Positions 12,163 to 33,109 of a stretch of DNA of 64,000 bases are shown in pieces. This DNA comes from Bacilli bacterium (GTDB lineage Bacteria > Bacillota_I > Bacilli_A > RF39 > UBA660). A program made the position numbers and the translations under genes. The notes beneath the pieces were generated by a model that was given only the letters and a program-made list of their open reading frames with translations, searched no databases and had not been told where the DNA came from. Numbering within the stretch: the stretch's first letter is position 1; each line of letters begins with the position of its first letter. Location of the stretch: contig JAFXXB010000032.1 of NCBI GenBank assembly GCA_017542465.1, positions 10,086 through 74,085 of the forward strand, given 5' to 3'.

Positions 12163-15100
12163 CTATATCATATTTATTATCTCATCTAATAACTTAACTT
12201 CATAATAAATAAAGTGTTTATCTAAGTTAATTGTAGGTAAAGATATATATATTCTCTTATTTTGATATTTTAATCTAAATTTAGGATTAATATTATATGT
12301 AATTAAGAATAACTTCTCACCATCTACTTTATCTGATATTTCTTGTGGTATTTCAATAGTGATTTCATTTTCTCTTCTATCTACTCTAGTTATAAGTAGT
12401 TTATTAGCTAGTTTTTCAAACCACTCTTCATACATATATACTTCCATATCAGAATTAATCTTACCAAATCTATCTTCTATTTGCTCTCTAATACTATTTA
12501 ATGTATCTTCATCTTTAATTTCATTTATCATCTTATGTATCTCAATCTTAACTGATTCATCAGATACATATTCATCAGATATATGGTTAGATACTTCAAT
12601 TAATGGATTACTTTGTTCATCTTCAGCATCTATTTCTTCACCATTTAGTTTCTTTATTTCTTCATTTACCATTTGAGTATATAATTCAATACCTACTGAA
12701 TCTATAAATCCTGCTTGTTCAGAACCTAATATATCTCCAGCACCTCTTATTGATAAATCTCTCATAGCTATCTTATAACCAGATCCTAATTCAGTAAAAT
12801 CTTTAATAGATTGTAATCTCTTAATAGCTGTATCAGTTAATACTTTAGCTGGTTTATACATAAGATATGCATAGGCTATCTTATCAGCACGACCAACTCT
12901 ACCTCTTAACTGATATAATTGAGCTAACCCAAATTGGTCAGCATCTATTACTATTAATGTATTAACATTAGGTATATCTATACCTGTTTCAATTATAGTT
13001 GTACAAATAAGAACATTAAACTTATTATCTACAAAGTCAGTTACGACGTTTTCAAGTTCTTGTTTATCCATCTTACCATGAGCTATAGCAATACTAGCTT
13101 CAGGTATTAATAATTGAATTCTAGTTTTAAAGTCTTCTATATCTTGTACTCTATTGTATAGAATAAATACTTGTCCTTCTCTAGATAATTCTTTATACAC
13201 TGCATCTTTAATTAATACATCGTTTTCTTCCAACACATATGTTTGAACAGGATATCTATTAACAGGTGCAGTATCTATAATAGATAAATCTCTTAAACCA
13301 GACATAGCCATCTTTAATGTTCTTGGTATTGGAGTTGCAGATAAAGTTAATACATTAACATCATTCTTTATCTCTTTTATTTCTTCTTTTTGAGCTACTC
13401 CAAATCTTTGTTCCTCATCTATAATTAATAAACCTAGATTCTTATATTCTAACTTTTTATTGAATAATTTATGAGTACCAAATAAGATATCTATTTTACC
13501 TTCAGATAAATCTTTAATAATTCTATTTTGTTCTTTAGTAGAAGTAAATCTATTTATTAAAGCTATATTAATAGGAAAATCTTTAAATCTTTGTATTGCA
13601 TTGTTGTATTGTTGTCTTGATAATAATGTAGTTGGACAAAGATATGCTACTTGATATCCATTCATAACAGCTTTGAATATTCCACGGAAAGCTACTTCAG
13701 TCTTACCAAATCCTACATCACCACATAATAATCTATCCATTGGAATAGGTGATTTTAAATCATTATCAACTTCTTTAATACTTTTTAACTGATCTGATGT
13801 TTCATCATATTCAAAATAATCACCAAATATTACTTCATCTTCAAAAGTCTTAAATACTGGACCTTTCAAATTAGCTCTTGCTGCATATAGTTTAATTAAT
13901 TCTTCTGATATATCGTGTATTCTAGTTCTAACTCTTAGTTTAGTCTTAGCCCATGATGTAGAATTAAGTTTATTAATATGTGGTGCTACTCCATCAGCAT
14001 CTGAATATTTATAGATAGTACTAATCTTTTCTACAGGAAGATATATTTTATCATTACCTTGATAATTTATTAAGATATAATCTCTTACCATATCTCCTTT
14101 AGTTAAACATGTAATACCACCATAAATACCTATACCATGTTGAGTATGTACTACATAATCACCTACTTTAATATCATTAAAGTCTTGTATCTTTTTACCC
14201 ATCTTATAAGTATTCTTATAATTTGTATAAACTCTTTCATCATCTATATCATATTCACTTATATAAATATAATTATTAATAATAAATCCATCATTAATCT
14301 TCTTTTTAATTACATTTATTTTTCCTGGTTGAATAGATCCTACATTAACATCTTTAATATATTCTTGTATTCTTTCTATTTGTTTATCTTTAGATAAACA
14401 TATAACTAATTCATTATTTTTATAATTATCTAAACAATAATCTTTTAGTTTTTCATAGTCACCTTTAAACTTAAGTACTGGTTTACTATTATAATTATCT
14501 GAATATTCTAGATTATTAATAGTTTCTACCTTTATGTATTTATTTACTTCTATTTCATCAAATAAATACATATATTTATATTCATTATCAATATGTTTAG
14601 ATTCTTTAAAAGCTTTAATATCATCACATATTTTATTATAACCATTTAATATTTGATTATAATCAACATAGAATACATTAGGATTATCTAAATAATCATA
14701 TAAACTATTATGTTCATCACTTATTACTTCTTGGAATGGTTTAATAGTATATTCATTTAATTCATTTAAACTTAACTGAGTAGATTCATCAAATACTCTT
14801 ATACTATCTATTTCATCACCAAAGAATTCTATTCTAATCGGATGTTCTTCTTCTATAGGAAATATATCTACTATATATCCTCTTACAGCATATTCACCTG
14901 TCGCTGTAACTATTGAATCTTGTTTATATCCTAGAGTTAATAATCTATCAATTATTTCATCACGATTAATTTCTAAACCTTTTTTTAACTCTATAATTGT
15001 ATTATCTTGTTCTTTAATAGATGGTAAATATCTTAAATATCCCATCAAGTTAGTTACTATAATAGATTTCTTATTCTTTTTTATTCCATCAAGAGTATCT

Positions 15101-15363
15101 AATCTTTTAACCTTTAAGTCTGGTGATAAAGCAACAGCTACTGATGCTAAAAAATCATCCATAGGAAAAAGAAAAACATCGTCTACATATGTTTTTAACT
15201 TTTGATAGATCTTATTGGAATCATATAAGCTATTAGTTACAATCAATACATTATCATCATATCTATTAAAATATGTTAAGTAATAAAGTATTTGTAATTC
15301 ATCACATAAGCCACATACAGTTCCATGATCCTTAAATTGAAATATATCATTTAAGAAATCCAT
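12163..15363 (-). CDS. mfd: transcription-repair coupling factor Mfd
   Basis: 1066 aa with CarD-like, DEAD/helicase (GDVGFGKTEVA, DEEQRFG) and TRG motifs. Confidence 0.92.
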   Translation of the reverse strand: MDFLNDIFQFKDHGTVCGLCDELQILYYLTYFNRYDDNVLIVTNSLYDSNKIYQKLKTYVDDVFLFPMDDFLASVAVALSPDLKVKRLDTLDGIKKNKKSIIVTNLMGYLRYLPSIKEQDNTIIELKKGLEINRDEIIDRLLTLGYKQDSIVTATGEYAVRGYIVDIFPIEEEHPIRIEFFGDEIDSIRVFDESTQLSLNELNEYTIKPFQEVISDEHNSLYDYLDNPNVFYVDYNQILNGYNKICDDIKAFKESKHIDNEYKYMYLFDEIEVNKYIKVETINNLEYSDNYNSKPVLKFKGDYEKLKDYCLDNYKNNELVICLSKDKQIERIQEYIKDVNVGSIQPGKINVIKKKINDGFIINNYIYISEYDIDDERVYTNYKNTYKMGKKIQDFNDIKVGDYVVHTQHGIGIYGGITCLTKGDMVRDYILINYQGNDKIYLPVEKISTIYKYSDADGVAPHINKLNSTSWAKTKLRVRTRIHDISEELIKLYAARANLKGPVFKTFEDEVIFGDYFEYDETSDQLKSIKEVDNDLKSPIPMDRLLCGDVGFGKTEVAFRGIFKAVMNGYQVAYLCPTTLLSRQQYNNAIQRFKDFPINIALINRFTSTKEQNRIIKDLSEGKIDILFGTHKLFNKKLEYKNLGLLIIDEEQRFGVAQKEEIKEIKNDVNVLTLSATPIPRTLKMAMSGLRDLSIIDTAPVNRYPVQTYVLEENDVLIKDAVYKELSREGQVFILYNRVQDIEDFKTRIQLLIPEASIAIAHGKMDKQELENVVTDFVDNKFNVLICTTIIETGIDIPNVNTLIVIDADQFGLAQLYQLRGRVGRADKIAYAYLMYKPAKVLTDTAIKRLQSIKDFTELGSGYKIAMRDLSIRGAGDILGSEQAGFIDSVGIELYTQMVNEEIKKLNGEEIDAEDEQSNPLIEVSNHISDEYVSDESVKIEIHKMINEIKDEDTLNSIREQIEDRFGKINSDMEVYMYEEWFEKLANKLLITRVDRRENEITIEIPQEISDKVDGEKLFLITYNINPKFRLKYQNKRIYISLPTINLDKHFIYYEVKLLDEIINMI

Positions 15364-15372
15364 ATTATCCCC

Positions 15373-15918
15373 TTAATTATATTTACCCATTAATTCATTT
15401 ATTTGATTATAATCAAATTCTTCTATTATTTTGTTAATATCTTTAAATTTATCAACAATTAATTTCATATCTTCTTTACCTATTTTACCAAGTACATAAT
15501 CTTTGGTATCAATAGATCTATCTTGAGATACACCTACTTTTATTCGTGCAAACGCATCAGTTCCAAGATTAGCTATTATATCTTTGATTCCATTATGCCC
15601 ACCTGCAGTAGAATTAATCTTTAATCTAATTTTACCTACAGGTAAATCTAAGTCATCTTGTATAACTAAGATATCTTCAATATCTAAATCAAAATAATCT
15701 TTGTATTGTCTTACAACGCCACCTGATAAATTCATATATGATTGAGGCTTAACAAATATGTATTTTTCACCTTTAATATTAGTCTCATAGTATAATCCAT
15801 TAAATTTAGAAGACCATTTAACATCACCTAAATAGTTATCTAATACCATAAAACCAATATTATGTCTTGTTTTTTCATATTCTTTACCTGGATTACCTAA
15901 TCCTACTACTAGTTTCAT
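15373..15918 (-). CDS. pth: peptidyl-tRNA hydrolase
   Basis: MKLVVGLGNPG..Y..TRHNIGF...GGHNG are canonical Pth motifs. Confidence 0.92.
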   Translation of the reverse strand: MKLVVGLGNPGKEYEKTRHNIGFMVLDNYLGDVKWSSKFNGLYYETNIKGEKYIFVKPQSYMNLSGGVVRQYKDYFDLDIEDILVIQDDLDLPVGKIRLKINSTAGGHNGIKDIIANLGTDAFARIKVGVSQDRSIDTKDYVLGKIGKEDMKLIVDKFKDINKIIEEFDYNQINELMGKYN

Positions 15919-15920
15919 AT

Positions 15921-16685
15921 TTATCCCTCCTTAAACATATCTTTATAACTCTTATCATCATGATGAAGTATTATAGGATTTAATACTTTAACATAATCTT
16001 CACCTTTAAACATAGCTTCAAATAATATATATACACATCTAGATTGATCATCATTATATACTGGAACTACTCTTTTAAGTCCAAATCCATATTTATGTAA
16101 TTCAATGATTACATCTGATAATCTTTCTGGTCTATGTACCATATATAAATATCCACCTGTATTTAATAACTTAGATGATATTTTAATAATATCTTCTAGT
16201 TTTAATTTTATTTCATGTCTTGCAATAGCTTTAATCTCTTCATCATTAGTTCTTGTTTCATCATGTTTAAAATACGGAGGATTACAAGTTATTACATCAA
16301 AATGTTTATTTCTAAATAGTTTTAAACAATTATTTACATCTTCATTAATAATATCAACATTAGTTATTTTATTATATTCTAATGATTCTATAGCTAAATC
16401 ATATATCTCTTTTTGTAGTTCAACACCAGTTATATGTATATTATTCCCATATCTTTTAGTTAATATCATAGGTATTGGTGCATTACCAGTACATAAATCT
16501 AGTATTTCTTTATCTTTCTTCTTTAACTTAATAAATTCAGATAATAATACAGAATCTGATGCAAACTTAAAATAATCTTTTATTTGATATATTTTATAAT
16601 CATAATCAAATAAATCATTAAGCTCTTTTATCTTTTCCTGCATTCTTAGGACACTCTCCTGCTTCATATGTTTTAATATCTCCAT
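15921..16685 (-). CDS. SAM-dependent methyltransferase, tRNA (adenine-N6) TrmN6/YabB-like
   Basis: ILDLCTGNA SAM motif and NPPYF catalytic motif. Synteny with ricT matches Bacillus yabB. The start is uncertain (M1, M7 or M15) and the ORF overlaps the ricT 3' end. Confidence 0.7.
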   Translation of the reverse strand: MEILKHMKQESVLRMQEKIKELNDLFDYDYKIYQIKDYFKFASDSVLLSEFIKLKKKDKEILDLCTGNAPIPMILTKRYGNNIHITGVELQKEIYDLAIESLEYNKITNVDIINEDVNNCLKLFRNKHFDVITCNPPYFKHDETRTNDEEIKAIARHEIKLKLEDIIKISSKLLNTGGYLYMVHRPERLSDVIIELHKYGFGLKRVVPVYNDDQSRCVYILFEAMFKGEDYVKVLNPIILHHDDKSYKDMFKEG

Positions 16686-17430
16686 TTATATCAACAGAAT
16701 ACTTCTTATTTAATACATCTAAAGATACTACTTTACCTTCACCATCTTTAGTTTTAATCTTTTGACCTATAGAAGGTAATTCTTTTCTATGACATGTATA
16801 TACATCATCTTCATAAGCTAAACAACATAATAATCTACCACATAATCCATTTATCTTTGTAGGATTTAATGCTAACCCTTGATTCTTAGCCATATTGATA
16901 GATATTGTTTCCATACCAGTTAAAAATGATCCACAACATAAAGGTCTACCACATTGTCCTAAACCACCAATTAACTTAGATTTATCTCTTACACCTATTT
17001 GATGTAATTCAATTCTAGTTTTAAATGAGGATGCTAAACTCTTAACTAATTCTCTAAAATCTACTCTATCATCAGCAATAAAGTTAAATGATAGTTGTTT
17101 TCTATCTAATGTATAAGAAGCATCTAATAATCTCATCTCTAAACCTAATTCTTTAGCTTCTTTTCTAGCATACTCTAATGCTTCCTTAGCTTTCTTTATA
17201 TTACTTTCATATTGTTTAATATCTTTATCATTAGCAATACGTAATACTTTCTTCATTTTATTTAAATCTAATTTCTTATTGTTTTCTATATCTAAATCAG
17301 TTACTCTAGCATATTGTTCACCATTTTCAGTATCAACAACAACATATGTACCTACATTTAAATCTAAATCATCATTTAAGAAGAAATATGTATTACCTGT
17401 ACTTTTAAATTTAACACCTACCATATTCAT
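16618..17430 (-). CDS. ricT: PSP1-domain regulatory iron-sulfur protein RicT/YaaT
   Basis: The likely start is MNMVGVKF at 17430 (ggaggt RBS). Cys-rich GQCGRPLCC...GLCGRLLCC motif. Confidence 0.85.
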   Translation of the reverse strand: MNMVGVKFKSTGNTYFFLNDDLDLNVGTYVVVDTENGEQYARVTDLDIENNKKLDLNKMKKVLRIANDKDIKQYESNIKKAKEALEYARKEAKELGLEMRLLDASYTLDRKQLSFNFIADDRVDFRELVKSLASSFKTRIELHQIGVRDKSKLIGGLGQCGRPLCCGSFLTGMETISINMAKNQGLALNPTKINGLCGRLLCCLAYEDDVYTCHRKELPSIGQKIKTKDGEGKVVSLDVLNKKYSVDINGDIKTYEAGECPKNAGKDKRA

Positions 17431-17434
17431 ACAA

Positions 17435-18295
17435 TTACCTCCATTCAATACATAATTTGTTAATAAATAAATCTTTATTAACATTATATTTATAATCATT
17501 TAAGAATGATTCTAATAATTTGATTCTACTTGTTAATAATTCAATATCACTTATATCTATTAAATCTAATACATTTCGTGCATATTCGAGATTATTATAT
17601 AGATTATTAGCAATATTTTCAAACTTTATAACATATGTTCTATATACTAGTTTAAATATTCTTAATATATCTTCTCTTTCTTTATTACTTAAATAACTAA
17701 TCTTAGCTAATCTTTCATATTCATGGGACATATTTAAAATATCTATTACCTTCTTAGCTTCATTATAGTATTTCTCATAATCATCTTCATTTATATCTAA
17801 TAAATCTAATACTGTATTACTACCATATCTTATATTTATTACATCACATCTAGATGTAATAGTAGGTAACATAGCAGATAATCTATTTGTTATAAAGAAT
17901 CCTACTATACCTTCTTCAGGTTCCTCTAAGAACTTAAGTATTTTATTAGCTGCAGATAAACTTAATAAATCTGCTTCATATATAACATACATAGAATACT
18001 TATTTATTAAAGGTTGTGTAGCAAATACATGTATTATATTTTCAATAGGATCTACACCTATTTCTTTCTTCTCTGGTTTAACCACGATAACATCAGGATT
18101 TGTACCAGCCTCAATTGTATGACATATATTACAATCATCAATTGTTTCATTCTTACAATTAAGTCTTTTAATCATATTTAAGATGTCTTTATAACAGGCA
18201 TCTAAATTATTCGTTTCAAGCAAAAAAGCATGAGAATTGTTTTTCTCATGGAATGAATTAATAATAGAATTTATTATCTCTTCATTACTTTTCAT
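17435..18295 (-). CDS. holB: DNA polymerase III delta' subunit
   Basis: 286 aa. HAFLL, the zinc-module-like C..C...C and LKFLEEP / SRC motifs. Synteny between recR and ricT. Confidence 0.75.
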   Translation of the reverse strand: MKSNEEIINSIINSFHEKNNSHAFLLETNNLDACYKDILNMIKRLNCKNETIDDCNICHTIEAGTNPDVIVVKPEKKEIGVDPIENIIHVFATQPLINKYSMYVIYEADLLSLSAANKILKFLEEPEEGIVGFFITNRLSAMLPTITSRCDVINIRYGSNTVLDLLDINEDDYEKYYNEAKKVIDILNMSHEYERLAKISYLSNKEREDILRIFKLVYRTYVIKFENIANNLYNNLEYARNVLDLIDISDIELLTSRIKLLESFLNDYKYNVNKDLFINKLCIEWR

Positions 18296-18303
18296 GCTTT
18301 CAC

Positions 18304-18897
18304 CTATACTTCTTTTCTATCTAGTAAAGCCCTATCAAGAGTAATTGAATCTAAATAATCTATATCTACACCCATAGGTATACCATATGATAATCTAGTG
18401 ACTTTAATATTCTTATTTTCAAATATTTTCTTAATGTATAAGGTAGTAGTTTCACCTTCTATTGTAGGTTTTAAAGCTACAATAATTTCAGCATCTTCTT
18501 TACCTTCAATTCTTGATAATAAATTATTAATATTAATATCTTCAGGATATATTCCATCCATAGGAGATATAAGACCATTTAATACATGATATTTACCAGA
18601 GAATATACCTGATTTTTCAAACATAAATACAGATTTATAATCTTCAACAACACATATTACATTATCTTTTCTATTAGTATCAATACATATTGAACATTCA
18701 TCTTTATCTGTAAGATGTCCACATGTCTTACATCTATGTAGTTTTTCCTTACAAGTTTTAATAGATTTAGAGAATTCTTCTATTTCTTCTTCATCTAAAT
18801 CCAATATAGATAAAGCAAAACGCTCTGCACTCTTTTCTCCTATACCTGGAAGCCTCTTAAATGAATTAATTACATTACTAAGTGACTCTGGATACAT
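18304..18897 (-). CDS. recR: recombination protein RecR
   Basis: LPGIGEKSAERFA HhH, a C4 zinc finger (CKTCGH..C.IC) and a Toprim region. Confidence 0.92.
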   Translation of the reverse strand: MYPESLSNVINSFKRLPGIGEKSAERFALSILDLDEEEIEEFSKSIKTCKEKLHRCKTCGHLTDKDECSICIDTNRKDNVICVVEDYKSVFMFEKSGIFSGKYHVLNGLISPMDGIYPEDININNLLSRIEGKEDAEIIVALKPTIEGETTTLYIKKIFENKNIKVTRLSYGIPMGVDIDYLDSITLDRALLDRKEV

Positions 18898-18898
18898 A

Positions 18899-19195
18899 TT
18901 ACATCAATCCGCCTAATTGTTTACTGTATGCACCTAATTTAGCTTCTGTATCTTTTTCTACCTTAGATATTGCATCATTCATAGCTATTTTAATCATATC
19001 TTCTAATACTTCAACATCTTCTTCATCTAATTGTTTAATCTTGATATTAACAGATTTAACTTTCTTAGATCCATATATAGTAATATCTACCATTTCAGAT
19101 GTTCCTGTGTATTCAGAATTATTGATTATTTCTTGTTTAGCTTGAATATCTTTTTGCATTCTTTGTGCTTGTTGTAACATTGCTTGCATATTCAT
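18899..19195 (-). CDS. ybaB: YbaB/EbfC-family nucleoid-associated protein
   Basis: 98 aa. MLQQAQRMQKD... family signature and the conserved dnaX-ybaB-recR order. Confidence 0.88.
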   Translation of the reverse strand: MNMQAMLQQAQRMQKDIQAKQEIINNSEYTGTSEMVDITIYGSKKVKSVNIKIKQLDEEDVEVLEDMIKIAMNDAISKVEKDTEAKLGAYSKQLGGLM

Positions 19196-19292
19196 AGTAT
19201 CACTCCTATTCTACATTTATATCTTTTCCAAATAATTCTTCTGCTAATCCTTGAGAACCAGCATTATTTATATATTCATCATCATTTATATA

Positions 19293-20762
19293 TTAATATT
19301 TCTTATTTTTATCAAATGATGAAGCTTGTTTCTTCCATTCAGATTCTGTTAAGAATAACATCTTATATTTAGTATTAAATGCATTGTTATAGTTATTTTC
19401 AACTATATCTAATCTTGAGTTTCCTAATGTCTTTATAGCTTCTCTTTTTGTTGAAAATATAACATTTGTTGGAGATACAACATTAGGTATAGAATCTTTA
19501 ATTATATTTAATAATTCCTTATTATCTTCATTTCTTATATCTTCAATAAATTTATTCCAATTCTCTATAAATTCGTTTTTTAATTCTTTAGTAGCTCCTG
19601 TAAAAGCATTATTAACACGAATATTAATAAATTCATCACATACTCTATAATATGCATCTTGTGTATTAGAATAAATATCATTCTTAACTATTTCTTTAGA
19701 TACTATTTGATCTATTTCTCTACTACTCATCTTGTTTTCATCAGCATTTATAAATGATAGTAAATTAAGTTGTAACATTAAATAACCATTTGTAGTATTA
19801 TTAATGTTCATTAGTAAATCATTTAATATCTTAATAATCTCTTTTATATGATTAAATAAGGCACTAGACATGTTCTTTTTCTTCATATCTATAGCTTTAT
19901 TTATAAAGTTTTCTATCATTTTGTTGATAAATATTTTGATATCAACACCAGATTCTTTAATATTATTGATATTTAGTATTAGATTATCTAAATCATTTCT
20001 AACGATATTTTGATATATAGCATCAATATCTTCATCAGTAACTGTACCATAATTTTGTTTTAATACATCCATATTAATTTCATCAGATACCTTAGATAAT
20101 TGATCTAATATACTTAAAGCATCTCTCATACAACCATCTGATAAATAAGATATTTCAGTAACTGCATCATCTTGATACTTAATATCTTCTTTTTTACAAA
20201 TATCTTTGATTTGTTTTTGTATTAACTCTCTATCAATACGATTAAAATCAAATCTTTGACATCTAGATAATACAGTAATTGGCACTTTTTGTATTTCTGT
20301 TGTTGCAAGAATAAATATAACATTTTGAGGAGGTTCCTCAAGTGTTTTTAAGAATGCATTCCAAGCTGAATTAGATAACATGTGTACCTCATCAATGATA
20401 TATATCTTATATTTTGATGATGTTGGAGCTATAAGAACTGAATCTTTAATATCTCTTATGTTATCTACACCATTGTTGGAAGCTGCATCCAATTCAATAA
20501 TATCTGGTGATGTTGCAAAATTAATACAATTTTCACATTCTTCACAAGGAATACCATCTTTTGCATTAGGACAATTAAGTGCTTTAGCAAATATTTTAGC
20601 TGTACTAGTTTTACCAGTACCTCTAGGTCCTGTGAAGATATAAGCATGAGCTATTTTATCTTCAATTATAGAGTTTTTTAATATTCTGACTATACTATCT
20701 TGACCGACTAATTGATCAAAGTTAGATGGTCTATATTTTCTATATAATACCTTATAGTTCAT
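19293..20762 (-). CDS. dnaX: DNA polymerase III subunit gamma/tau
   Basis: YRKYRP..F..LVGQ, GPRGTGKTS, the zinc module C..C..C and IIDEVHMLS. The likely start is the ATG at 20762 (ggtgagagg RBS). The track ORF begins 3 codons earlier. Confidence 0.9.
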   Translation of the reverse strand: MNYKVLYRKYRPSNFDQLVGQDSIVRILKNSIIEDKIAHAYIFTGPRGTGKTSTAKIFAKALNCPNAKDGIPCEECENCINFATSPDIIELDAASNNGVDNIRDIKDSVLIAPTSSKYKIYIIDEVHMLSNSAWNAFLKTLEEPPQNVIFILATTEIQKVPITVLSRCQRFDFNRIDRELIQKQIKDICKKEDIKYQDDAVTEISYLSDGCMRDALSILDQLSKVSDEINMDVLKQNYGTVTDEDIDAIYQNIVRNDLDNLILNINNIKESGVDIKIFINKMIENFINKAIDMKKKNMSSALFNHIKEIIKILNDLLMNINNTTNGYLMLQLNLLSFINADENKMSSREIDQIVSKEIVKNDIYSNTQDAYYRVCDEFINIRVNNAFTGATKELKNEFIENWNKFIEDIRNEDNKELLNIIKDSIPNVVSPTNVIFSTKREAIKTLGNSRLDIVENNYNNAFNTKYKMLFLTESEWKKQASSFDKNKKY

Positions 20763-20798
20763 ACCTCTCACCTACTTATAATTATACCATATAATAAG

Positions 20799-21218
20799 TT
20801 ATCTATTTAAGTTTTTATCAAAGAAATTACTTAATTTTTCTTTATATTTTTCTTTATAATTATCTACATCATTTAATATATATACATTAGTACGTTTATA
20901 CTTATGTTTTTCCTTATTTTCTAGGAGATAATAAACATTTTGAATTCTTGATTCCTGTATTATTTCCATACACATATCACATGGTTCAAGAGTAACATAA
21001 AGGTCACAGTCAGATAATCTCCAATCGCCTAATTTATTACATGCATCTTTTATAGCATTTACCTCTGCATGACCAGTAGGATCATTAGTAATTATTCTAT
21101 TATTAAAACCTTCACCAATTATTTCATTATTTTTAACTACTATAGCACCAATAGGTATATCACCTACTTGTTCTGCACTTTTAGCTAATTCAATTAATAC
21201 ATCTATATATTTATTCAT
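20799..21218 (-). CDS. tadA: tRNA-specific adenosine deaminase TadA
   Basis: HAEVNAI and TLEPCDMC deaminase zinc motifs. The likely start is MNKYIDV at 21218. Confidence 0.88.
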   Translation of the reverse strand: MNKYIDVLIELAKSAEQVGDIPIGAIVVKNNEIIGEGFNNRIITNDPTGHAEVNAIKDACNKLGDWRLSDCDLYVTLEPCDMCMEIIQESRIQNVYYLLENKEKHKYKRTNVYILNDVDNYKEKYKEKLSNFFDKNLNR

Positions 21219-21237
21219 ATAATCACCCAATAAAAAA

Positions 21238-21308
21238 GCACACACGAATAGGGATTAATATGGCTGCTACATTCCTGTCCTGACCAATTTATAATATATT
21301 CGTTGTGC
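21238..21308 (-). ncRNA. ffs: signal recognition particle RNA, short 4.5S-type
   Basis: The minus strand reads GCACAACGAAT...TTGGTCAGGACAGGAATGTAGCAGCCATA...ATTCGTGTGTGC followed by TTTTTT. A long closing helix surrounds the conserved GGUCAGG.C.GGAA..AGCAGCC domain IV motif. Confidence 0.8.
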
Positions 21309-21354
21309 TATAAGTATTATAACATACATATTAATTAATACAAATAGTTTTATA

Positions 21355-21370
21355 TATTTCACGTGAAACA
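21355..21370. promoter_or_regulatory. parS-like site (15/16 match to TGTTTCACGTGAAACA)
   Basis: TATTTCACGTGAAACA, with one mismatch in the left arm. Confidence 0.6.
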
Positions 21371-21376
21371 TTAACA

Positions 21377-21589
21377 TTAACAACAATCACAGTAACCATC
21401 AAAGAAATTAAATAAATCTTCAATTATTGATATATTATTAATTTTAGAAAAATCTAAAGACTTTAAATGACTTAAATAGTCATAATATTGTTCATCCTCT
21501 TCATCAAAAACTAATAATATATAAATTATGTTCATTAAAGATATATGTTTTACTTTAATTAAATATTTAATTAACTTAAATCTATACAT
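21377..21589 (-). CDS. small hypothetical protein (70 aa, C-terminal CDCC)
   Basis: aggtga RBS 6 nt before the ATG. No family recognised. Lies between two parS-like sites. Confidence 0.35.
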   Translation of the reverse strand: MYRFKLIKYLIKVKHISLMNIIYILLVFDEEDEQYYDYLSHLKSLDFSKINNISIIEDLFNFFDGYCDCC

Positions 21590-21622
21590 ATTATCACCTA
21601 TAACAATTTTATCATTACTTTA

Positions 21623-21638
21623 TGTTTCACGTGAAATA
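21623..21638. promoter_or_regulatory. parS-like site (15/16)
   Basis: TGTTTCACGTGAAATA, with one mismatch in the right arm. Confidence 0.6.
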
Positions 21639-21668
21639 TATATTTCAAAAATTTACACACTTATACAA

Positions 21669-21684
21669 TGTTTCACGTGAAACA
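21669..21684. promoter_or_regulatory. parS site (16/16), core of a 26-bp perfect palindrome
   Basis: TGTTTCACGTGAAACA lies inside TACAATGTTTCACGTGAAACATTGTA (21664-21689). Confidence 0.8.
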
Positions 21685-21689
21685 TTGTA

Positions 21690-21720
21690 ATAAAAAGAAG
21701 AGATTATTTAGTCTCTTCTT
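21690..21720 (-). terminator. rho-independent terminator of gyrA
   Basis: On the minus strand: AAGAAGAGA-CUAAAUAA-UCUCUUCUU followed by UUUAUU. The stop codon sits in the loop. Confidence 0.7.
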
Positions 21721-24295
21721 TTACTTCTTCAGCAGTTTCTACTGTTTCTTCAGTTATTTCTTCATCAGATTCATCATCATCTTTAGTTATAACTGATACT
21801 GTAGATACACATTGTTCATCTTTAAGGTTAATTAATCTTACACCTTGAGTCACTCTATTTAATTGAGATATTGAACTAATAGGTATTCTAATAATCATAC
21901 CTTGTTCTGTAACAATTAATAATGATTTATCATCATCAACTATCTTATGAGCAATCATACCACCAGTTTTATCAGTAGCTTTAATACTTAATACACCTTT
22001 AGATCCACGTTTTGTCTTTCTATAGTCTTTAACGAATGTTCTCTTACCATATCCATTCTTAGATATTACTAGTAAGTTATCATCATCAGTACCAACTTCC
22101 ATACCAGTACATTCACCACCATCAAGGTTTATACCCTTAACACCAGTAGCAGTTCTACCCATTGGTCTAATTTCAGATTCATCGAATACTACAATCTTAC
22201 CAGATGTAGATCCTAAGATTATATTCATATTACCATCAGTTAATTTAACATCTATTAATTCATCATCATCGTGTAATGTAATAGCTATCTTACCTGATTT
22301 TCTAATACTTTCATACTCTTCTATAGGTGTTTTCTTGATAATGCCTTGTTTAGTAGCAAATACTACATACTTCATTGATGTTTCACGTGAAACATTGATT
22401 ATTGCATTTACCTTTTCATCTTTATCTATTTGAATAAGATTTATAATTGGTAATCCTTTAGCATTTCTACCATATTCAGGTATTTCATATCCTTTTAATC
22501 TATATATTCTTCCTTTATTTGTGAATATACATACATAATCATGTGTTGATGAATTAATTAAGAATTTAACATAATCATCTTCATTAGTACTCATTCCTTT
22601 AACTCCTACACCACCACGATTTTGTTCACGATATGTGTTAGCAGATAAACGTTTAATATATCCTTTATCAGTTAAAGTAATTATAATATTTTCTTCTGGT
22701 ATTAAAGATTCATCCTCAATAAAATCTATAGCAGTCATATCAATATGAGTTCTTCTTTCATCACCAAATCTATTAGCTACATCTAATAATTCTTTCTTAA
22801 CTATATCTCTAACCATTTCGTCAGAGTTAAGAATAGAATTATAGTATTCTATATCTTTTAATAATCCATCACGTTCTTCTGTAACCTTATCTAATTCAAG
22901 TCCAGTTAACTTTCTTAAACGCATTTGTAGGATATCTTCAGATTGAATATCATCTAAACCATACTTTTCTTCAAGTTTAGTTTTAGCTTCAATATCAGTT
23001 CTAGATCCACGTATTATCTTAACAAAATCATCAATATTATTTATTGCTATGATTTCACCATCTAAGATATGTACTCTATTTTCAGCTTGTCCTAAATCAT
23101 ATCTAGTACGTCTAATTAATACTTCTTTTTAATAATCAGTATATTTAATTAAGATATCTCTTAAACCTAGAGTTCTAGGTATACCATTATCTAACATAAG
23201 TAAATTAATACCATATGTCATTTGTAATGGAGTTGATTTATATAAGTTATTTAAAATAACATTAGGGTTTGCATCTTTCTTACATGTAACAACTATTTTA
23301 ATACCATTTTCAATATTAGTTTCTTCATGTAAGTCTGCAATACCATCTATTACTTTATCTCTAACTAATTCAGCAATCTTAGTTTGTAATTCTTTTTTAT
23401 TAACTCCATAAGGAATTTCAGTAATAACAATTAAACTATGATTTTGTTTTTCTTGTATTTCTACTTTACCTCTTATAGTTATAGATCCTTTTCCAGTTCC
23501 ATATGCTTGTCTAATACCTGAATTTCCAAGGATTATAGCACCTGTAGGAAAATCTGGACCTTTAACATGAGTCATTAATTCATCTAATTCAATTTCAGGA
23601 TTATCTAGTACAGCTACACATCCATTAACTACTTCTCTTAAGTTATGTGGAGGTATATTTGTTGCCATACCTACTGCGATACCCATTGTTCCATTAACTA
23701 AAATATTAGGAAACTTAGATGGTAATACACTAGGTTCTTTTCTTGTTGCATCGAAGTTATCAACAAAATCTACTGTATCTTTCTTAATATCTCTAGTCAT
23801 TTCTAGTGAAATCTTAGAAAGTCTAGCTTCAGTATAACGCATGGCAGCAGCGCCATCACCATCCATAGAACCAAAGTTACCATGTCCATCAACTAAAGGA
23901 TATCTATATGAGAAATCTTGAGCCATACGAACCATAGCTTCATATATAGATGAATCACCATGTGGATGGTAAACACCCATTACGTTACCAACAGTTCTAG
24001 CTGATTTAACATGTGGTTTATCTGGAGTAATACCACTTTCATACATTGAATATAAAATTCTTCTATGTACTGGCTTTAAACCATCTCTTAGATCAGGTAA
24101 AGCACGGGCAACTATAACTGACATTGAATAATCTAGGAATGAATCCTTAATTTCTTTAACAATATCATTTTCAATCATTTGATCAGCAGGAAGAGTTGTT
24201 TCGATACCTTCAGGTATTTCTTCATCATCTTCGATATCTTCTATCTCTTCTTCAACTACTTTTTCTTCAATCATATCTAAATCTCTTTCGTCCAT
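21704..24295 (-). CDS. gyrA: DNA gyrase subunit A, one continuous frame interrupted by a single in-frame TAA at 23129-23131
   Basis: The track splits it into 23129..24295 (N-terminal part, with the active-site AAMRYTE) and 21704..22924 (CTD beta-pinwheel). The 68 codons between them are open in the same frame. They read [24 protein letters not shown]..., the conserved GyrA coiled-coil region. Confidence 0.85.
22379..22394. promoter_or_regulatory. parS site (16/16) inside the gyrA coding sequence
   Basis: TGTTTCACGTGAAACA (18-bp palindrome 22378-22395), encoding ..NVSRETS.. of the GyrA CTD. Confidence 0.75.
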
Positions 24296-24306
24296 ACCTT
24301 CACCTC

Positions 24307-26259
24307 CTAAATATCTATATTCTTAACATATCCAGCATTTTCAACTATGAAATTACGTCTAGGTTCAACATTATCAGACATTAATAAACTAAATGCTTCA
24401 TCTGCAGCCATTGCATCTTCAACAGTTATCTTACGTAATACTCTATTTTGTTTAGACATTGTTGTATCTCTTAATTCAGATGCATCCATCTCTCCTAAAC
24501 CTTTGAATCTGTTAACTATCTTACTATTTTGATATTTCTCAGGTATTTGCTCTAATACCTTTTGTAAATCATCATCACTTTGAACTAATACTGTCTTCTT
24601 ACCATATGTAACCTTATATAAAGGAGGTTGCGCAGCATATACATATCCACCTTCTACTATAGGTCTAAAGAATCTATAGAATAATGTTAATAATAATGTT
24701 CTAATATGTGCACCATCAACATCGGCATCAGTCATGATAATGATTTTATGATATCTTAACTTTTCAACATCAAAATCTTCACCAATACCAGTACCAAAAG
24801 CAGTTATCATTGATTTTATTTCTTCATTATTTAATGCTCTATCAAGTCTTGCCTTTTCTACATTTAATATCTTACCTCTTAAAGGTAATACAGCTTGAGT
24901 TAAGTAGTCTCTTCCCATCTTAGCTGATCCACCGGCTGAATCACCCTCGACTATGAATATTTCACACTCTTCAGCATTTTTAGACTTACAATCAGTTAAT
25001 TTACCCATGAAATTAATATTATCTAATCCTGTTTTTCTTCTAGTATTTTCTCTAGCTTTCTTTGCAGCAAGTCTTGCTTGTGATGCTAAAGCACATTTAC
25101 TTACTATAACTTTAGCTGCATCAGGATTTTCCATTAAATATCTTTCAAAACCTTCACTGAAAACATCACTTGCAATCTTTTTAACTTCAGAATTACCTAA
25201 TTTAGTCTTTGTTTGTCCTTCAAACTGAGGATCTGGATGTTTACAAGATATAACCATTGTTAAACCTTCTCTTACATCATCACCAGTTAAGGCTTCATCT
25301 TTTTCTTTTAAGATATTCTTAGCTCTTGCATATTTATTAATAATACGAGTTAATGCGGCTTTTACACCATCTTCATGTGTTCCACCTTCATGAGTTCTAA
25401 TATTATTAGTAAATGAATATATAGCTGAATTATAATCTTCATTATATTGCATAGCTACTTCTATAGATATATCATCTTCCATACCTTCAAAAGCTACTAC
25501 ATCATGTAATACTGTCTTATTTTTATTTAATAAATCTACATATTCAGATATACCACCTTCATAGTAGAAATTATCTCTTTTAACTGTTTCTTCTCTTTCA
25601 TCAACTAAAGCTATTCTTAAACCTTTATTTAAAAATGCTAACTCTCTTAATCTTTGTTTTAAAGTATCATAATTATATACTGTAGTTTCAGTAAATATTG
25701 TAGCATCTGCTTTAAATCTTACTTCTGTACCATGTATATCATTATCACATGATGATATAACAGCTAAATCTCCAACTGGTTTTCCACCATGCTCAAATCT
25801 TTGGAAATATACTTTTTCATCACGTGAAACTTTAACTTCTAGCCAATCAGACAATGCATTAACGACTGATGCACCTACTCCATGAAGACCACCAGAAACT
25901 TTGTAGCCTCCACCACCAAATTTTCCACCTGCATGTAATACAGTAAAAATTGTTTCAATAGTAGATTTACCAGTCTTTTCATTCATACCTGTAGGCATTC
26001 CACGTCCATTATCTCTTACTGATATGATATTACCCTTCTCTATTGTAACTAAAATATCAGTACAAAAACCTGCTAAAGCTTCATCTATTGAGTTATCTAC
26101 AATTTCCCATACAAGATGATGTAGACCTCTTTCACTTGTAGTACCAATGTACATACCAGGTCTTTTACGAACTGCTTCTAGCCCTTCAAGTACTTGAATC
26201 TCACTGTCATCATATTCATCAATTTTCTTATTTAATTCAGCTAATTCCTTATCATTCAT
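24307..26259 (-). CDS. gyrB: DNA gyrase subunit B
   Basis: 650 aa. [36 protein letters not shown] and PL.GKILNVE motifs. Confidence 0.95.
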
Positions 26260-27349
26260 AATATTCCTCCTTGATGTTTCCGTTCTTTATCTTAAATATC
26301 TTACTTCCTACTTTTAATCTCTTATCTACCTTAGTTAATTCAGTAGTTGTAACAAAAGTTTGAATATCGTCAGATATAAAATCTAATATGTTATTTATCT
26401 TTTTCTTATCTAATTCAGAAAATAAATCATCTAATATTAATATAGGTATAATATTTAAATCTTCTCTAAATATATCTATTTCAGCCATTTTTAATGATAT
26501 AATGGCATTTTTTTGTTCACCTTCTGATCCAAAATCTCTTAAATTATTACCATTAAGTTCAAATACATAATCATCATGGTGAATTCCTATATTAGTTTTA
26601 CCTTGTTGAATATCTTTTTTAACATTCTTATTAAATGCTTTTAATAATTCATCTTTAGTCTTATCACTAAAGTCTGATTTATAAGAAAGCACTAATCCAT
26701 GTTTCTTAGCTATTCTATAGTAGTTATTTTCTATATATTTACTGATATTATTAATAAAATCTATACGATATTTATTAATCTTCATACCTAAATCAATTAT
26801 TTGTTCAGTTAATATATCTAAATAACTTCTAGATGTATTAGCATTAAACATCATCATCTTAAGATATGCGTTTCTTTGTTTTAATATCTTATTATACATA
26901 GATAATAACTTAAGATATTCATTAGAATACTGACTTAATTCTATATTAATAAGTTTTCTTCTTGTATTAGGTGTATCTTTAATTAATTTAAGATCTTCAG
27001 ATGTAAATAATACTATATTTATCTTAGATATATAATCAGATATCTTATCTATCTTGTTATTGTTGATAAATACTCTCTTACCCTCTTTAGATAAAACTAA
27101 CTTATATTTATCTTTATGTTTATCTTTAACTGTACCTTCAATAGTAGTTGATTCACACCCATTTTTAATGATTACATCTTCATGTGAACCCCTGAAGGAT
27201 TTAGATAATGATAATACATATAGACTCTCTACAATATTAGTCTTACCTTCTCCATTTTCACCTATAATAATATTTTTAGTTGGATTAAAGTCAAGATTAA
27301 GTCTTTCATAGTTACGAAAATTTACTAACCTTATATTTATAATTTTCAT
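26252..27349 (-). CDS. recF: DNA replication/repair protein RecF
   Basis: FRNY and GENGEGKTN Walker A, an SMC-like signature SEGEQK, and LILDD Walker B. Confidence 0.9.
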
Positions 27350-27451
27350 AAAAATCCCCCTAAAATTATTTTTAAGGCTAAATTAGACCTTTTATGTGTA
27401 CCTATATACAAATATATTATATCACATTAAAAACATATTAAAAACAATTTA

Positions 27452-27904
27452 TTACACTTTTTGCCCTTTATTTTTGATTATTTTAGCACTTAAAAGAGTA
27501 GATTTTAGTAATTGATTATTTAAGATGTTAAAAGAAGTGTGAAATTCTATATTTTTATTATTTATGAAGTTGATAACTGAACATTTATTAACTTTATTGT
27601 AATTAATAGTTATTATGTTATCTAAATTAATCCATGAACACTTCTTTAATCTAGGTGAAGTAGTGGGGAAGAATATAATGTTATCATCTATAATTACAGG
27701 TGATTTATAATATGTACCTATTAGATTATATGTACCATCTATTCTACCTTTATAAGATGATCCATGTATTCTGCAATTATAATTAATAATATTTAATGGT
27801 ATATTCTTAATTATTTTTATTTTATCTACTTCATATACAATAGAGTAGTGTAGTAAATAAGGTATTATAGCTAATGTATTATTACTAATAACATAATTAT
27901 TCAT
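27452..27904 (-). CDS. ComK-family competence transcription factor-like protein
   Basis: PLNIINYNCRIHGSSYKGRIDGTY...KSPVII....IIFFPTTSP...C.WI aligns well with the B. subtilis ComK core. Confidence 0.75.
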   Translation of the reverse strand: MNNYVISNNTLAIIPYLLHYSIVYEVDKIKIIKNIPLNIINYNCRIHGSSYKGRIDGTYNLIGTYYKSPVIIDDNIIFFPTTSPRLKKCSWINLDNIITINYNKVNKCSVINFINNKNIEFHTSFNILNNQLLKSTLLSAKIIKNKGQKV

Positions 27905-27995
27905 ATATTATCTCCTTTCAAATGAGTAGAGTAATATAATTATGCTATCTAAAAATGTCATAATAAAAATAAAAAAAGAAGATATAATCTTCCTT

Positions 27996-29111
27996 TTAAT
28001 ATGTTTTAATAGGTAATATTAATTGTATTAATGAATCATCATCTTTAGTCTTTAAAATAATAGGTTTAGAATCAGTATTCATATTAATTAATATTTCTTC
28101 TGAATCAAATGTTTTTAAAGCATCCATCATATATTTAGATGAATAAGATATACTCATATCATCTTTAATATTTCTATCTACTTTAATCTTATCTTCAACT
28201 TTACCAATTTCAGATGCAAATGAACTTAATATTAATTCATCATCTTTTAATTCCATCTTAATTACATTCTTTTCTTTACTTTGAGCAAGTAGGGCAGCTC
28301 TATCAATTGATCCATAGAAATCATTTAAATTAGCTGTAACTATATGAGTAAATTCAGTTGGAATGAAACTAGAAGTATTTGGATATTCACCATTTAATAG
28401 ATTTGTTTGGAATATAATGTTGTTATATTTAAACATAATCTTCTTAGCAAATACATGTATTTCTACATTATCTTCATTATCATTTAAGATTTTATCTAAT
28501 TCAGATACATTTCTACCAGGAATAATAATATTAACATTATCGTCATATGGTTGATCTAATTTAACTATCTTCTTAGCTAATCTATAAGAGTCTGTAGCAA
28601 CACATTCTAATAAATCACCATTAATCTTAACATTTAATCCATCTAATAATGGTCTAGATTGAGATACAGCAAATATAGTTTGAGATATTGTCTTCTTTAA
28701 TACACTTGATTGCATATTAATATGTGTTTTATTATCTTCTAATTGTATTTCTGGATAATCTAAACTATTTAAACAATTTAAATTATATTCAGAATTATCA
28801 GAATAAATAATTATTTTATAATCATCTACACCTTCAAAGTTAACTATATCACTAGGCATCTTTTTAATAATATCTAATAGATATTTAGATTGAATGATTA
28901 CAACTCCTTCTTTTTCAACACTTTCTATTTTATCAGTAGGTATAAAAGATTTAATTGTAAGATCTGAATCAGATGCAGTTAAATATAATCCTTCACTTTT
29001 TAATTCAAATTTAATACCATTTAATATAGGTATAATATTTCTTGTTGATATTGCTCTTGATACATTTATTAATTCATTTAAGATTGTGTTTTTATTAATT
29101 GAAAATTTCAT
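27996..29111 (-). CDS. dnaN: DNA polymerase III beta subunit (sliding clamp)
   Basis: 371 aa with a three-domain clamp pattern. Position is immediately downstream of dnaA. Confidence 0.9.
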   Translation of the reverse strand: MKFSINKNTILNELINVSRAISTRNIIPILNGIKFELKSEGLYLTASDSDLTIKSFIPTDKIESVEKEGVVIIQSKYLLDIIKKMPSDIVNFEGVDDYKIIIYSDNSEYNLNCLNSLDYPEIQLEDNKTHINMQSSVLKKTISQTIFAVSQSRPLLDGLNVKINGDLLECVATDSYRLAKKIVKLDQPYDDNVNIIIPGRNVSELDKILNDNEDNVEIHVFAKKIMFKYNNIIFQTNLLNGEYPNTSSFIPTEFTHIVTANLNDFYGSIDRAALLAQSKEKNVIKMELKDDELILSSFASEIGKVEDKIKVDRNIKDDMSISYSSKYMMDALKTFDSEEILINMNTDSKPIILKTKDDDSLIQLILPIKTY

Positions 29112-29234
29112 TTTAATTCCTTCTTTCTTTTTATTTTTTAAGTAGTATTAATATAGGTGTTGATAATGTTTAAAAGTATGATATTGTCCACAAATACGTT
29201 TATTTTTCATTGTTTATTACTTTTTAGTTTTAAA
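29112..29234. promoter_or_regulatory. oriC segment between dnaA and dnaN (DnaA boxes plus an AT-rich stretch)
   Basis: TGTTGATAA (29158-29166) and TTGTCCACA (29184-29192) are flanked by long A/T runs. Confidence 0.6.
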
Positions 29235-30677
29235 CTATTCTATCAATCTATCTTTAATATTTTTAATTTCTTCATTTAATTGAGGATCTTCTGCTATATC
29301 ATTTCTAATCTTTTCTACACCATGTAATACTGTTGCATGATCTCTATTATATTCTAGACCTATCTTAGTAATAGTTTCTTCAGTTACTATACTGCTTATA
29401 TACCAAGCTACTTGTCTAGCTTTATTAATATTTGCTGTTCTCTTCTTACTCTTTAAGGATTCTTCAGTAACATCATAATATTCTGCTACTGTTTTTCTTA
29501 TTCTTAATAAGTTATTAGTTATATACTGTGTACTATTAAACTCTGAATCTAAAGCATTTATAGCAAATTGTATATCTATAACTGTTGGATTCCACATTGA
29601 TGTTTCAAGTAATAACTTATTAATTATTCCATCTAAACTTCTGTTATCAGCAGGGGAGTTAGATGCTATATAATCATATACTTCTTCTTGCATCATTGAA
29701 TATGCAAGTGTTCCTAATAATCTATTTTTTAATATTTTAATTTTTAATTCTTTATCAGGTGGTTTAATATCTAACGCTATACCTGCAGAGAATCTTGTTA
29801 TTAATCTAGGTTCAAATTTATTTAATTCACTAGGTTTTTTATCAGATGATATTATTATTTGTTTATTTAATCTATGCATACTATCGATAATATTAAATAA
29901 TTCATTTTGAGTAGCTTTTGCTTCAGCCATCATTTGTATATCATCTAGTAATAATACATCTATATTTCTATATTTTTCTTTAAAATGTTCTACTAAAGTA
30001 TAATCTGAATTAGCTGACTTTCTAGTCATATCGATAAATTCATTTATAAAATCACCAGAACTAATATATAAAACCGTTTTATTACTATTTTTAACTATAT
30101 AATTACCTATAGCCATCATAAGGTGAGTTTTACCTGTTCCAGAGTTACCATATAAAAAGAATGGATTATATGAACAACCTGGGTTTTTAGCTACCTCTAA
30201 GGCTACTATTTGAGCTGCTTTATTAACATCACTTATCATATAGTTATCAAAAGTATGATTTGGATTTAAATTACTATCGATTTTTATAAGTTCTTTTTTT
30301 AATTCCTCAGGATCATCATTAGAATTATCTACTATTTCCTGTTTAATTATCTCAAAAGTAGGGGTTAATGAACTTTTATCTTCATAATTAGCATTAATAA
30401 GTTCATTCTTTATAGTATCTGTTTGTAATTCAAAATCATAATTTTTACCAGTAACTTCTTTTAAAGTTTCTTCTATTATATTCTTATAATCTTGATTATC
30501 TAATATTTTTTTCTTTTTAAAGTCTGAGTCTATATATAGAATAGCAGTGGTATCAAGGTCAAGTATTTGCATATTCTTGAACCATGCATTATATAATGCA
30601 GTAGAAACTTTTGCTTGTATTGATTGTAAAAATAATGATGTAGCTTTGTCTAAAGAAAGCGTTTCTTCCACATTCAT
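29235..30677 (-). CDS. dnaA: chromosomal replication initiator protein DnaA
   Basis: 480 aa. NPFFLYGNSGTGKTHL, LLLDDIQ and the domain IV DHATVLHG motif. Confidence 0.95.
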   Translation of the reverse strand: MNVEETLSLDKATSLFLQSIQAKVSTALYNAWFKNMQILDLDTTAILYIDSDFKKKKILDNQDYKNIIEETLKEVTGKNYDFELQTDTIKNELINANYEDKSSLTPTFEIIKQEIVDNSNDDPEELKKELIKIDSNLNPNHTFDNYMISDVNKAAQIVALEVAKNPGCSYNPFFLYGNSGTGKTHLMMAIGNYIVKNSNKTVLYISSGDFINEFIDMTRKSANSDYTLVEHFKEKYRNIDVLLLDDIQMMAEAKATQNELFNIIDSMHRLNKQIIISSDKKPSELNKFEPRLITRFSAGIALDIKPPDKELKIKILKNRLLGTLAYSMMQEEVYDYIASNSPADNRSLDGIINKLLLETSMWNPTVIDIQFAINALDSEFNSTQYITNNLLRIRKTVAEYYDVTEESLKSKKRTANINKARQVAWYISSIVTEETITKIGLEYNRDHATVLHGVEKIRNDIAEDPQLNEEIKNIKDRLIE

Positions 30678-30739
30678 ATAACCACCCTGTTCTATTTTTC
30701 TAACACTAAAAACATTATAATAACTCCTTGTTCAAAAAG

Positions 30740-30935
30740 TAAATAGTTGAAAACATTTCTTTACTTTTCAATAAGTTATCAACCTAATTATCAACGTTTA
30801 ATGTCCTATTATAACGTGTCAAATCATACTTTTCAACGTTTTCAACAAATTTTAATTAACTTTTCAACGTATATGTGGAAAACCTCATTGTTGAAAGTGT
30901 TAATATCGTTTAAAAGTCTTATTATCTACGAAAAT
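30740..30935. promoter_or_regulatory. oriC segment upstream of dnaA: cluster of DnaA-box variants TTWTCAACN/TTTTCCACA
   Basis: At least 9 boxes in both orientations start at 30746, 30765, 30776, 30788, 30830, 30839, 30861, 30874 and 30889. The region lies between divergent dnaA and rpmH. Confidence 0.75.
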
Positions 30936-30938
30936 TGG

Positions 30939-30967
30939 TTGACTTGATTATATTAATATAATATAAT
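30939..30967 (+). promoter_or_regulatory. sigma-70-type promoter of rpmH
   Basis: TTGACT, a 17-nt spacer, then TATAAT. Confidence 0.6.
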
Positions 30968-30999
30968 AACCTTGCATTTGAGATGTGGAGGTGTAATTT

Positions 31000-31125
31000 A
31001 TGAAGAGACCATTTCAACCAAATAATAGAAAAAAAGCTAAAAAACATGGATTCTTTGCACGTAAAGGTACAAACGTTTTAAAGACTAGAAGAGCAAAAGG
31101 AAGAAAAAATTTAATAACTAAATAA
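31000..31125 (+). CDS. rpmH: 50S ribosomal protein L34
   Basis: Not in the ORF track because it is under 60 aa. It reads [41 protein letters not shown] and has a ggaggtg RBS. Confidence 0.92.
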
Positions 31126-31165
31126 TCCACTTTATAAGTGGTTTTTATTTTATGGAGGTGTATTA

Positions 31166-31486
31166 ATGAAGAAATATGAAATAGTAAAAGAACATAAAGA
31201 TTTTGATGATATCATTAATACAGGTAAATATAAAAAGGGTAATTATTTTGTTATATATAATAAGGAAAAGGAAAATAACAAAAGATTTGGTATAGCTGTA
31301 TCTAAGAAATGTGGTCATGCAGTTGTACGTAATAGATTAAAAAGGGTTACTCGTATGATACTAGAGACTAATAAAAATATGTTTAAAAATAACAACGATT
31401 ATATTATAATAGTGAAGACGAGTGCAGTAGATATTCCATATGCTGCATTGGAGAAAGATATATTAAATATAATAAAGGGTGATTAA
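31166..31486 (+). CDS. rnpA: ribonuclease P protein component
   Basis: 106 aa. FGIAVSKK.G.AV.RNR.KR motif. Position is after rpmH. Confidence 0.9.
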   Translation: MKKYEIVKEHKDFDDIINTGKYKKGNYFVIYNKEKENNKRFGIAVSKKCGHAVVRNRLKRVTRMILETNKNMFKNNNDYIIIVKTSAVDIPYAALEKDILNIIKGD

Positions 31487-32429: not shown

Positions 32430-33043
32430 TGGAAGAAAAGTTATACGAAGGCCAAGATAAACAAGAATTAATTAACAAGGCTTTAGAAGAACTAGAATGC
32501 ACTGAAGATGATATATTATATTCAGTAACAAAGGATAAAGTAGGGTTATTTAAGAAAGAAGTAGTTAAACTTCATGTGTTTAAGATGACTGATGTAGTTG
32601 AATTCGTAAAGAATTACTTAGAAGACTTAACTAAAGATATGGGTTTAGATGTACAATTTGAAACTAAAGTAAGGGAAAAACAAATAACAGTTAGAATGTT
32701 CTCAGACAATAATAACATTTTAATTGGTAAACAAGGTAAAACATTACAAGCATTAACTACAGTAGTTAAACAAGTAGTTAAGAATAAAACTGGTTGTTAT
32801 CCATATATATTATTAGATGTATCTAATTATAAAGAAAATCAAGAAAAATATTTAATTAGAGCAGCTAAGAATATAGCTAAAGAAGTTGAAGAAACTAAAG
32901 TTCCTGTAACAATGGAAAACATGAACTCATATGAAAGAAGAATAATACATAATTATATATCTGAAAAGTTCAGTACAGTTTATACTGAATCTGAAGGTGA
33001 AGAACCTAATAGACATATAGTTGTAAAACCAAAAGAGGATTAG
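32429..33043 (+). CDS. jag: RNA-binding protein Jag/KhpB (Jag-N, KH, R3H)
   Basis: IGKQGKTLQAL (KH) and ERRIIHN (R3H). TAATG overlap with yidC. Confidence 0.88.
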   Translation: MEEKLYEGQDKQELINKALEELECTEDDILYSVTKDKVGLFKKEVVKLHVFKMTDVVEFVKNYLEDLTKDMGLDVQFETKVREKQITVRMFSDNNNILIGKQGKTLQALTTVVKQVVKNKTGCYPYILLDVSNYKENQEKYLIRAAKNIAKEVEETKVPVTMENMNSYERRIIHNYISEKFSTVYTESEGEEPNRHIVVKPKED

Positions 33044-33058
33044 TCCTCTTTTTATTTT
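33033..33058 (+). terminator. rho-independent terminator after jag
   Basis: aagagga-ttag-tcctctt followed by tttatttt. Confidence 0.6.
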
Positions 33059-33109
33059 GTAATAAGGCATTAAAGTGTTATAATACAATTGCTTATTGGG
33101 GTGAATTAC

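Follow-up and report, generated by a model that had tools for sequence, protein, structure and literature searches.

The classical ochre (UAA) suppressors of E. coli are mutant tRNAs. Programmed stop-codon read-through, exemplified by the coat-protein extension of the RNA phage Qbeta, takes place at conserved sites and extends a complete protein. Stop codons can also be reassigned, with UAA and UAG read as Gln in ciliates and UGA read as Trp or Gly in some bacteria; the known bacterial reassignments are all of UGA (Shulgina and Eddy 2021, PMC8629427). Furthermore, errors of assembly, linked to coverage and to the assembler, are frequently the source of 'pseudogenes' with an internal stop (Cooley and Wright 2024, BMC Genomics, PMC11017572).

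We analysed a stretch of 64,000 nucleotides (G000:C1:10086-74085; the window) of a rumen metagenome-assembled genome (MAG), G000, whose relatives are uncultured Bacilli MAGs from rumen and gut. The assembly measures 1.085 Mb in 46 contigs, has a G+C content of ~26% and is 87% complete. The original prediction, made from the letters of the window, was that the essential gene gyrA is interrupted by one in-frame TAA in an otherwise intact frame.

The locus shares several traits with error-born internal stops as described in PMC11017572: a lone stop breaks an otherwise perfect gene that is essential and highly conserved, only one draft shows it, near-identical genomes are intact, and the same assembly holds further such stops. 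It differs in that the error in gyrA is something we infer, and in that the assembly otherwise looks very accurate wherever it was compared. Ochre suppression would let TAA nonsense alleles in essential genes be tolerated, but here no UUA-anticodon tRNA was found, TAA predominates among the terminators, and the stops are few, with two of the three lying within 3.8 kb. As under a code in which UAR encodes Gln, the in-frame TAA of gyrA stands at a conserved Gln position; unlike under such a reassignment, TAA ends 70% of the genes, the other private TAAs stand at Glu, and conspecific genomes have CAA. The locus resembles read-through of the Qbeta type in that the frame stays open past an in-frame stop, whereas the gyrA stop lacks conservation and cuts through a catalytic domain.

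Results

The gyrA gene occupies positions 21704..24295 of the minus strand and comprises 863 codons plus the terminal stop. Its identity is supported by translation, by Pfam and PDB matches, and by an 863-residue GyrA in the protein database (P0001). The frame opens with an ATG at 24295 and closes with the terminal stop at 21704 (864 codons including the stop), and the TAA of codon 389 (23129..23131, minus strand) is its sole internal stop, as the original prediction had it. On the minus strand, the surroundings of the stop read ATT AAA TAT ACT GAT TAT TAA AAA GAA GTA TTA ATT AGA CGT. The listing of open reading frames cuts the gene in two, a piece of 388 amino acids (23129..24295) and one of 406 amino acids (21704..22924), and the nearest in-frame ATG, GTG or TTG past the TAA is found 68 codons downstream.

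When the frame is read through the stop, the product matches Pfam family PF00521 at residues 64-503, followed by six PF03989 blades. Its best PDB matches are chains of DNA gyrase subunit A, and codon 389 aligns to residue 358 of the solved 875-residue subunit (PDB 6rks). Because the stop falls inside PF00521, it interrupts the breakage-reunion domain and removes the entire C-terminal domain. The neighbourhood is the usual origin cluster, dnaA-dnaN-(comK-like)-recF-gyrB-gyrA. A second intact gyrA elsewhere in the genome had been named as an observation that would count against the original prediction. In a tblastn search of the 87%-complete assembly no such copy was found; the only paralogue was a ParC-like gene on contig C46, with 37% identity.

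Other genomes were used to establish what codon 389 encodes when it is not a stop. In a protein search, P0001, which is encoded on five contigs, was identical to the read-through product at all 863 positions except Q389. Hence, the part of the gene downstream of the stop shows no decay. The near-identical contigs that carry P0001 came from five metagenomes (ERZ27256878, ERZ28653783, ERZ28653672, ERZ14209546 and ERZ28018973). They share 99.7-99.96% DNA identity with the window, and all of them have CAA at codon 389; the plus-strand base at 23131, which is A in the window, is G in five of five other conspecific samples. The aligned codon was also CAA (Gln), with conserved flanks, in 14 of the 14 genus- and family-level relatives whose loci were fetched. 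The placement of the TAA at a Gln position, which had been based on an alignment with B. subtilis GyrA, was therefore correct, and so was the proposal of one CAA-to-TAA change.

Among the loci inspected, an internal gyrA stop was seen in none of 40 relatives. Stops had been reported within the gyrA matches of some relatives, and inspection of these loci placed them at the edges of the matches, outside the gene. Exact look-ups of the truncated products (388 and 406 amino acids) retrieved no record from any other assembly. A scan of JGI metagenomes with a 35-mer across the site gave no matches for either allele, and the contigs of a Logan run that looks identical to G000 (SRR12529271) are too short to cover the nonsense site of gyrA or that of dnaX described below. 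At the level of nucleotide comparison, these data show the gyrA TAA to be a single C-to-T difference (coding strand) that is private to the G000 assembly.

The scan for other conserved genes with a single in-frame TAA, which had been proposed as a check, yielded two further cases that the original prediction itself had missed. One is dnaX, encoding the tau/gamma subunit of DNA polymerase III (19206..20762, minus strand). This gene has 518 codons in conspecific contigs, and the 518-residue product was called on contigs L016, L018 and L122. Here it encodes 489 amino acids, owing to a private TAA at codon 490 (19293..19295, minus strand). At 19295 the plus strand has A in the window, whereas five other samples have C and hence a GAA (Glu) codon. 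The translation of the window reads ...DKNKKY*YINDDEY... (the asterisk being the stop), and the frame runs on for 29 more codons past the TAA, so that the last 29 residues are lost. The distance between the TAAs of dnaX and gyrA is 3.8 kb. TAT precedes the TAA at both of these sites; with n = 2 sites this is too weak to interpret.

The other case is an E-rich membrane protein of 806 amino acids on another contig (G000:C36:24239-26687, minus strand). The gene is open as 431 and 384 codons on either side of one TAA (stop at C36:25394, residue E422). Its counterpart in three congeners is a single open reading frame of 757-779 amino acids, and the conspecific contig L103 encodes the intact 806-residue protein. 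Over 10,768 nt, L103 and G000 differ by one mismatch, and this is the G-to-T change that turns GAA into TAA. Exact look-ups of the truncated DnaX (489 amino acids) and of the 421-residue piece from C36 found neither of them on record elsewhere. The three private TAAs replace Gln in gyrA, Glu in dnaX and Glu in the C36 gene, and hence point to no consistent decoding.

For a broader comparison, 911 kb of the congener G011 was fetched and open reading frames were compared in both directions. The alignment of ~200,000 codons revealed genuine internal stops of G000 in gyrA and dnaX and nowhere else, and the reciprocal comparison showed no internal stops in G011.

A further TAA in the window, at 53272-53274, had been put forward as a reason why the gyrA stop was worth checking, and this argument did not hold. 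It lies in the broken third paralogue of a three-gene array (52891-53661, minus strand), where it aligns to a Tyr or Phe of the two neighbouring paralogues. Over 9.8 kb, the window shares 100% identity with contig L020 of another sample, on which the same 129-residue product with the same end was called; L021 and L022 also carry a call for this 129-residue product. Since the stop is common to near-identical contigs and the paralogue array is non-essential, we regard it as an ordinary, older, inherited pseudogene. It is unrelated to the gyrA case.

We then considered how the private differences are distributed, where a difference around gyrA was called private if it differed from all conspecific contigs covering the position. 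All eight window-private differences of the region fall within a tract of 9.7 kb (19295..28999). Five of them are synonymous, one is a missense change (dnaN T38K) and two are the nonsense changes in gyrA and dnaX. Relative to contig L016, the window shows 15 differences within 19295-28999 and a cluster of 12 differences over 0.3 kb at 32606-32911, with full identity over the remainder of the 22.6 kb. In other words, the flanks at 11704-19294 and 29000-34295, apart from the 32606-32911 cluster, do not differ from L016. Such a layout of divergence near oriC has the look of recombination, or of a switch between strains in the assembly. Moreover, the private synonymous changes look like real strain divergence, which makes the 19.3-29.0 kb tract probably a distinct haplotype.

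Elsewhere, private differences were scarce. Three regions on C22, C28 and C11 were chosen without regard to stops, and in the ~40 kb of these that is covered by at least two contigs we found only two private differences, both synonymous. The 9.8 kb compared with L020 contained none.

Given the codon usage of this genome, random substitutions are expected to yield 74% missense, 20% synonymous and 6% nonsense changes. The known private non-synonymous changes are three nonsense and one missense, against a random expectation of ~1 nonsense per 12 missense, a ratio that is biased because nonsense changes were screened genome-wide and missense changes in only ~7% of the genome. The three nonsense codons look like changes unfiltered by selection, such as would arise from errors or from very recent mutations in a minor haplotype with thin coverage. 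Two of the three private stops lie within 3.8 kb of each other, which points to a local cause rather than to one acting throughout the cell, such as a suppressor.

TAA is the main terminator of this genome. Among 748 open reading frames of at least 150 amino acids, 523 (70%) end in TAA, 178 in TAG and 47 in TGA, and when open segments of 100 codons or more are counted, TAA closes 755 of 1161. This excludes a global reassignment of TAA, in agreement with the original prediction. TAA does not behave as a sense codon would: rather than being rarely or never used as a terminator, TAA ends 70% of the long reading frames; rather than many in-frame cases at one amino acid, there are two and one more on C36; and rather than being shared by close relatives, the gyrA TAA is CAA in the five conspecific samples and the 14 relatives. 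TGA, for its part, is a rare terminator in G000 (47 of 748 long reading frames, 6%). In some class-level relatives (G035 and G040), 6-8 TGAs stand in frame within ParC, in keeping with lineages that use code 4.

A tRNA with a UUA anticodon had been suggested as a target of search. ARAGORN identified 26 tRNAs in the 87%-complete assembly, and none of them has this anticodon. Several tRNAs are missing from the set, and the lack of a UUA tRNA is weak evidence because the set is incomplete. We did find a tRNA-like element at 12044-12114 (minus strand), which scores 38.8 bits with the Rfam tRNA model (above the gathering threshold) and 44.8 bits with SpF41_sRNA (gathering threshold 52). Together with a terminator-like hairpin that follows it, the element spans 12017-12121 (minus strand). 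Its anticodon loop comprises 6 nt (AUAAUU), its acceptor stem contains two mismatches, and CCA is not encoded. As a candidate suppressor it was rejected: the loop does not contain UUA, and the stretch has no differences from L016, whose gyrA has CAA. The element probably belongs to a family of tRNA-like sRNAs rather than to the decoding tRNAs.

Signals that could promote read-through were sought at the gyrA stop itself. No stimulatory structure was found near it, as the region 23040-23170 (minus strand) folds with -17.7 kcal/mol, a z-score of -0.43 relative to shuffled sequences. Nor is the stop conserved among orthologues or strains, as judged from 14 relatives and five conspecific samples.

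Discussion

We infer that the TAA in gyrA is probably a consensus or sequencing error, or an artefact of assembly. The variant occurs in one assembly only, near-identical genomes have a sense codon at the position, and the same assembly contains other changes that selection appears not to have filtered (dnaX, and the GAA-to-TAA change on C36). This reading fits the account of internal stops born from assembly and coverage in PMC11017572. A counterpoint is that the assembly is very accurate elsewhere, with no differences in 9.8 kb and two in ~40 kb. The assembler may have threaded a thinly covered minor haplotype through the 19.3-29.0 kb tract, which would have brought in the dnaX nonsense codon too. 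The real gyrA of the organism would then be an intact gene of 863 residues with CAA at codon 389, as in every other sample of the species.

After error, the next most likely cause would be a non-viable minority allele that was taken up by the assembler. Here the TAA would be a real but functionally meaningless nonsense allele, a very recent CAA-to-TAA change in a minor, dying or complemented sub-population (for example, one with several chromosome copies per cell) that was caught in the consensus. The five private synonymous changes in the 19.3-29.0 kb tract resemble a distinct haplotype rather than noise, and the nonsense codons of both essential genes, gyrA and dnaX, lie within this haplotype-like tract. 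Moreover, each of the three private nonsense changes runs from G or C to T, as mutations in an AT-rich genome usually do. Yet GyrA would be cut at 389, without the rest of PF00521 and without the C-terminal domain, no in-frame start follows for 68 codons, and the sole paralogue is ParC at 37% identity. A lineage that is null for both gyrA and dnaX should not reach an abundance at which it assembles, and the allele was seen in no other sample. We therefore consider a real nonsense allele unlikely. The original prediction had listed error, a very recent nonsense mutation and site-specific read-through or suppression side by side; the first two are favoured by our data, whereas the absence of the TAA from five conspecific samples at 99.7-99.96% identity argues against the third.

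Under the third, termination at UAA in this strain would be leaky, or countered by an ochre suppressor tRNA from an unassembled contig, so that part of the translation continues past UAA, full-length GyrA, DnaX and membrane protein are made, and TAA nonsense alleles are tolerated. All three private in-frame stops are indeed TAA, two of them in essential genes with otherwise perfect frames, and 26 tRNAs in an 87%-complete assembly form an incomplete set in which a suppressor could have been overlooked. Against this, none of these 26 tRNAs has a UUA anticodon, and the tRNA-like element at 12044-12114, with its AUAAUU loop lacking UUA, is the same in L016, where gyrA has CAA. Efficient suppression would be very costly when TAA ends 70% of the genes. 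Two internal stops per ~200,000 aligned codons, within 3.8 kb of each other, suggest a local rather than a cell-wide cause, no stimulatory structure follows the gyrA stop, and the stop reassignments known in bacteria all involve UGA (PMC8629427). We judge partial read-through or suppression to be highly improbable, and likewise a role of the gyrA TAA as a recoding or read-through signal to be very unlikely. Even less credence is due to the more specific version, in which the TAAs at gyrA Q389, dnaX E490 and C36 E422 are real alleles of one rumen strain, tolerated because the unassembled part of the genome encodes a tRNA that suppresses ochre codons or a cause of unusually leaky termination at UAA. 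A functional split gyrase, in which a 388-residue N-terminal piece works together with a separately initiated C-terminal piece, has in its favour that both halves are long open frames. However, the next start lies 68 codons on, which would cost the protein residues 390-456, within PF00521, and no relative or conspecific genome examined has a split here. The missing start codon and the lack of conservation effectively refute this arrangement, and we give it almost no chance of being right.

On present evidence, the gyrA TAA is not a real biological feature. If it were real, tolerance of a UAA in gyrA would mean that a bacterium naturally suppresses ochre codons or has begun to recode UAA. To our knowledge, no case of this kind has been described. 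The example also illustrates that a few isolated nonsense codons can occur in essential genes even of a MAG without a wrong base over tens of kilobases, and that such stops can be recognised quickly by comparison with near-identical contigs from other samples.

Broken reading frames were also encountered in other assemblies of this species. By the C11 locus, a gene of 454 amino acids with unknown function (L118:11077-12441) is split in other conspecific assemblies: L120 has a product of 336 amino acids and a second open reading frame of 114 amino acids, and L119 has 57 amino acids, cut by the end of the contig. Gene-breaking variation hence occurs among other samples of the species as well.
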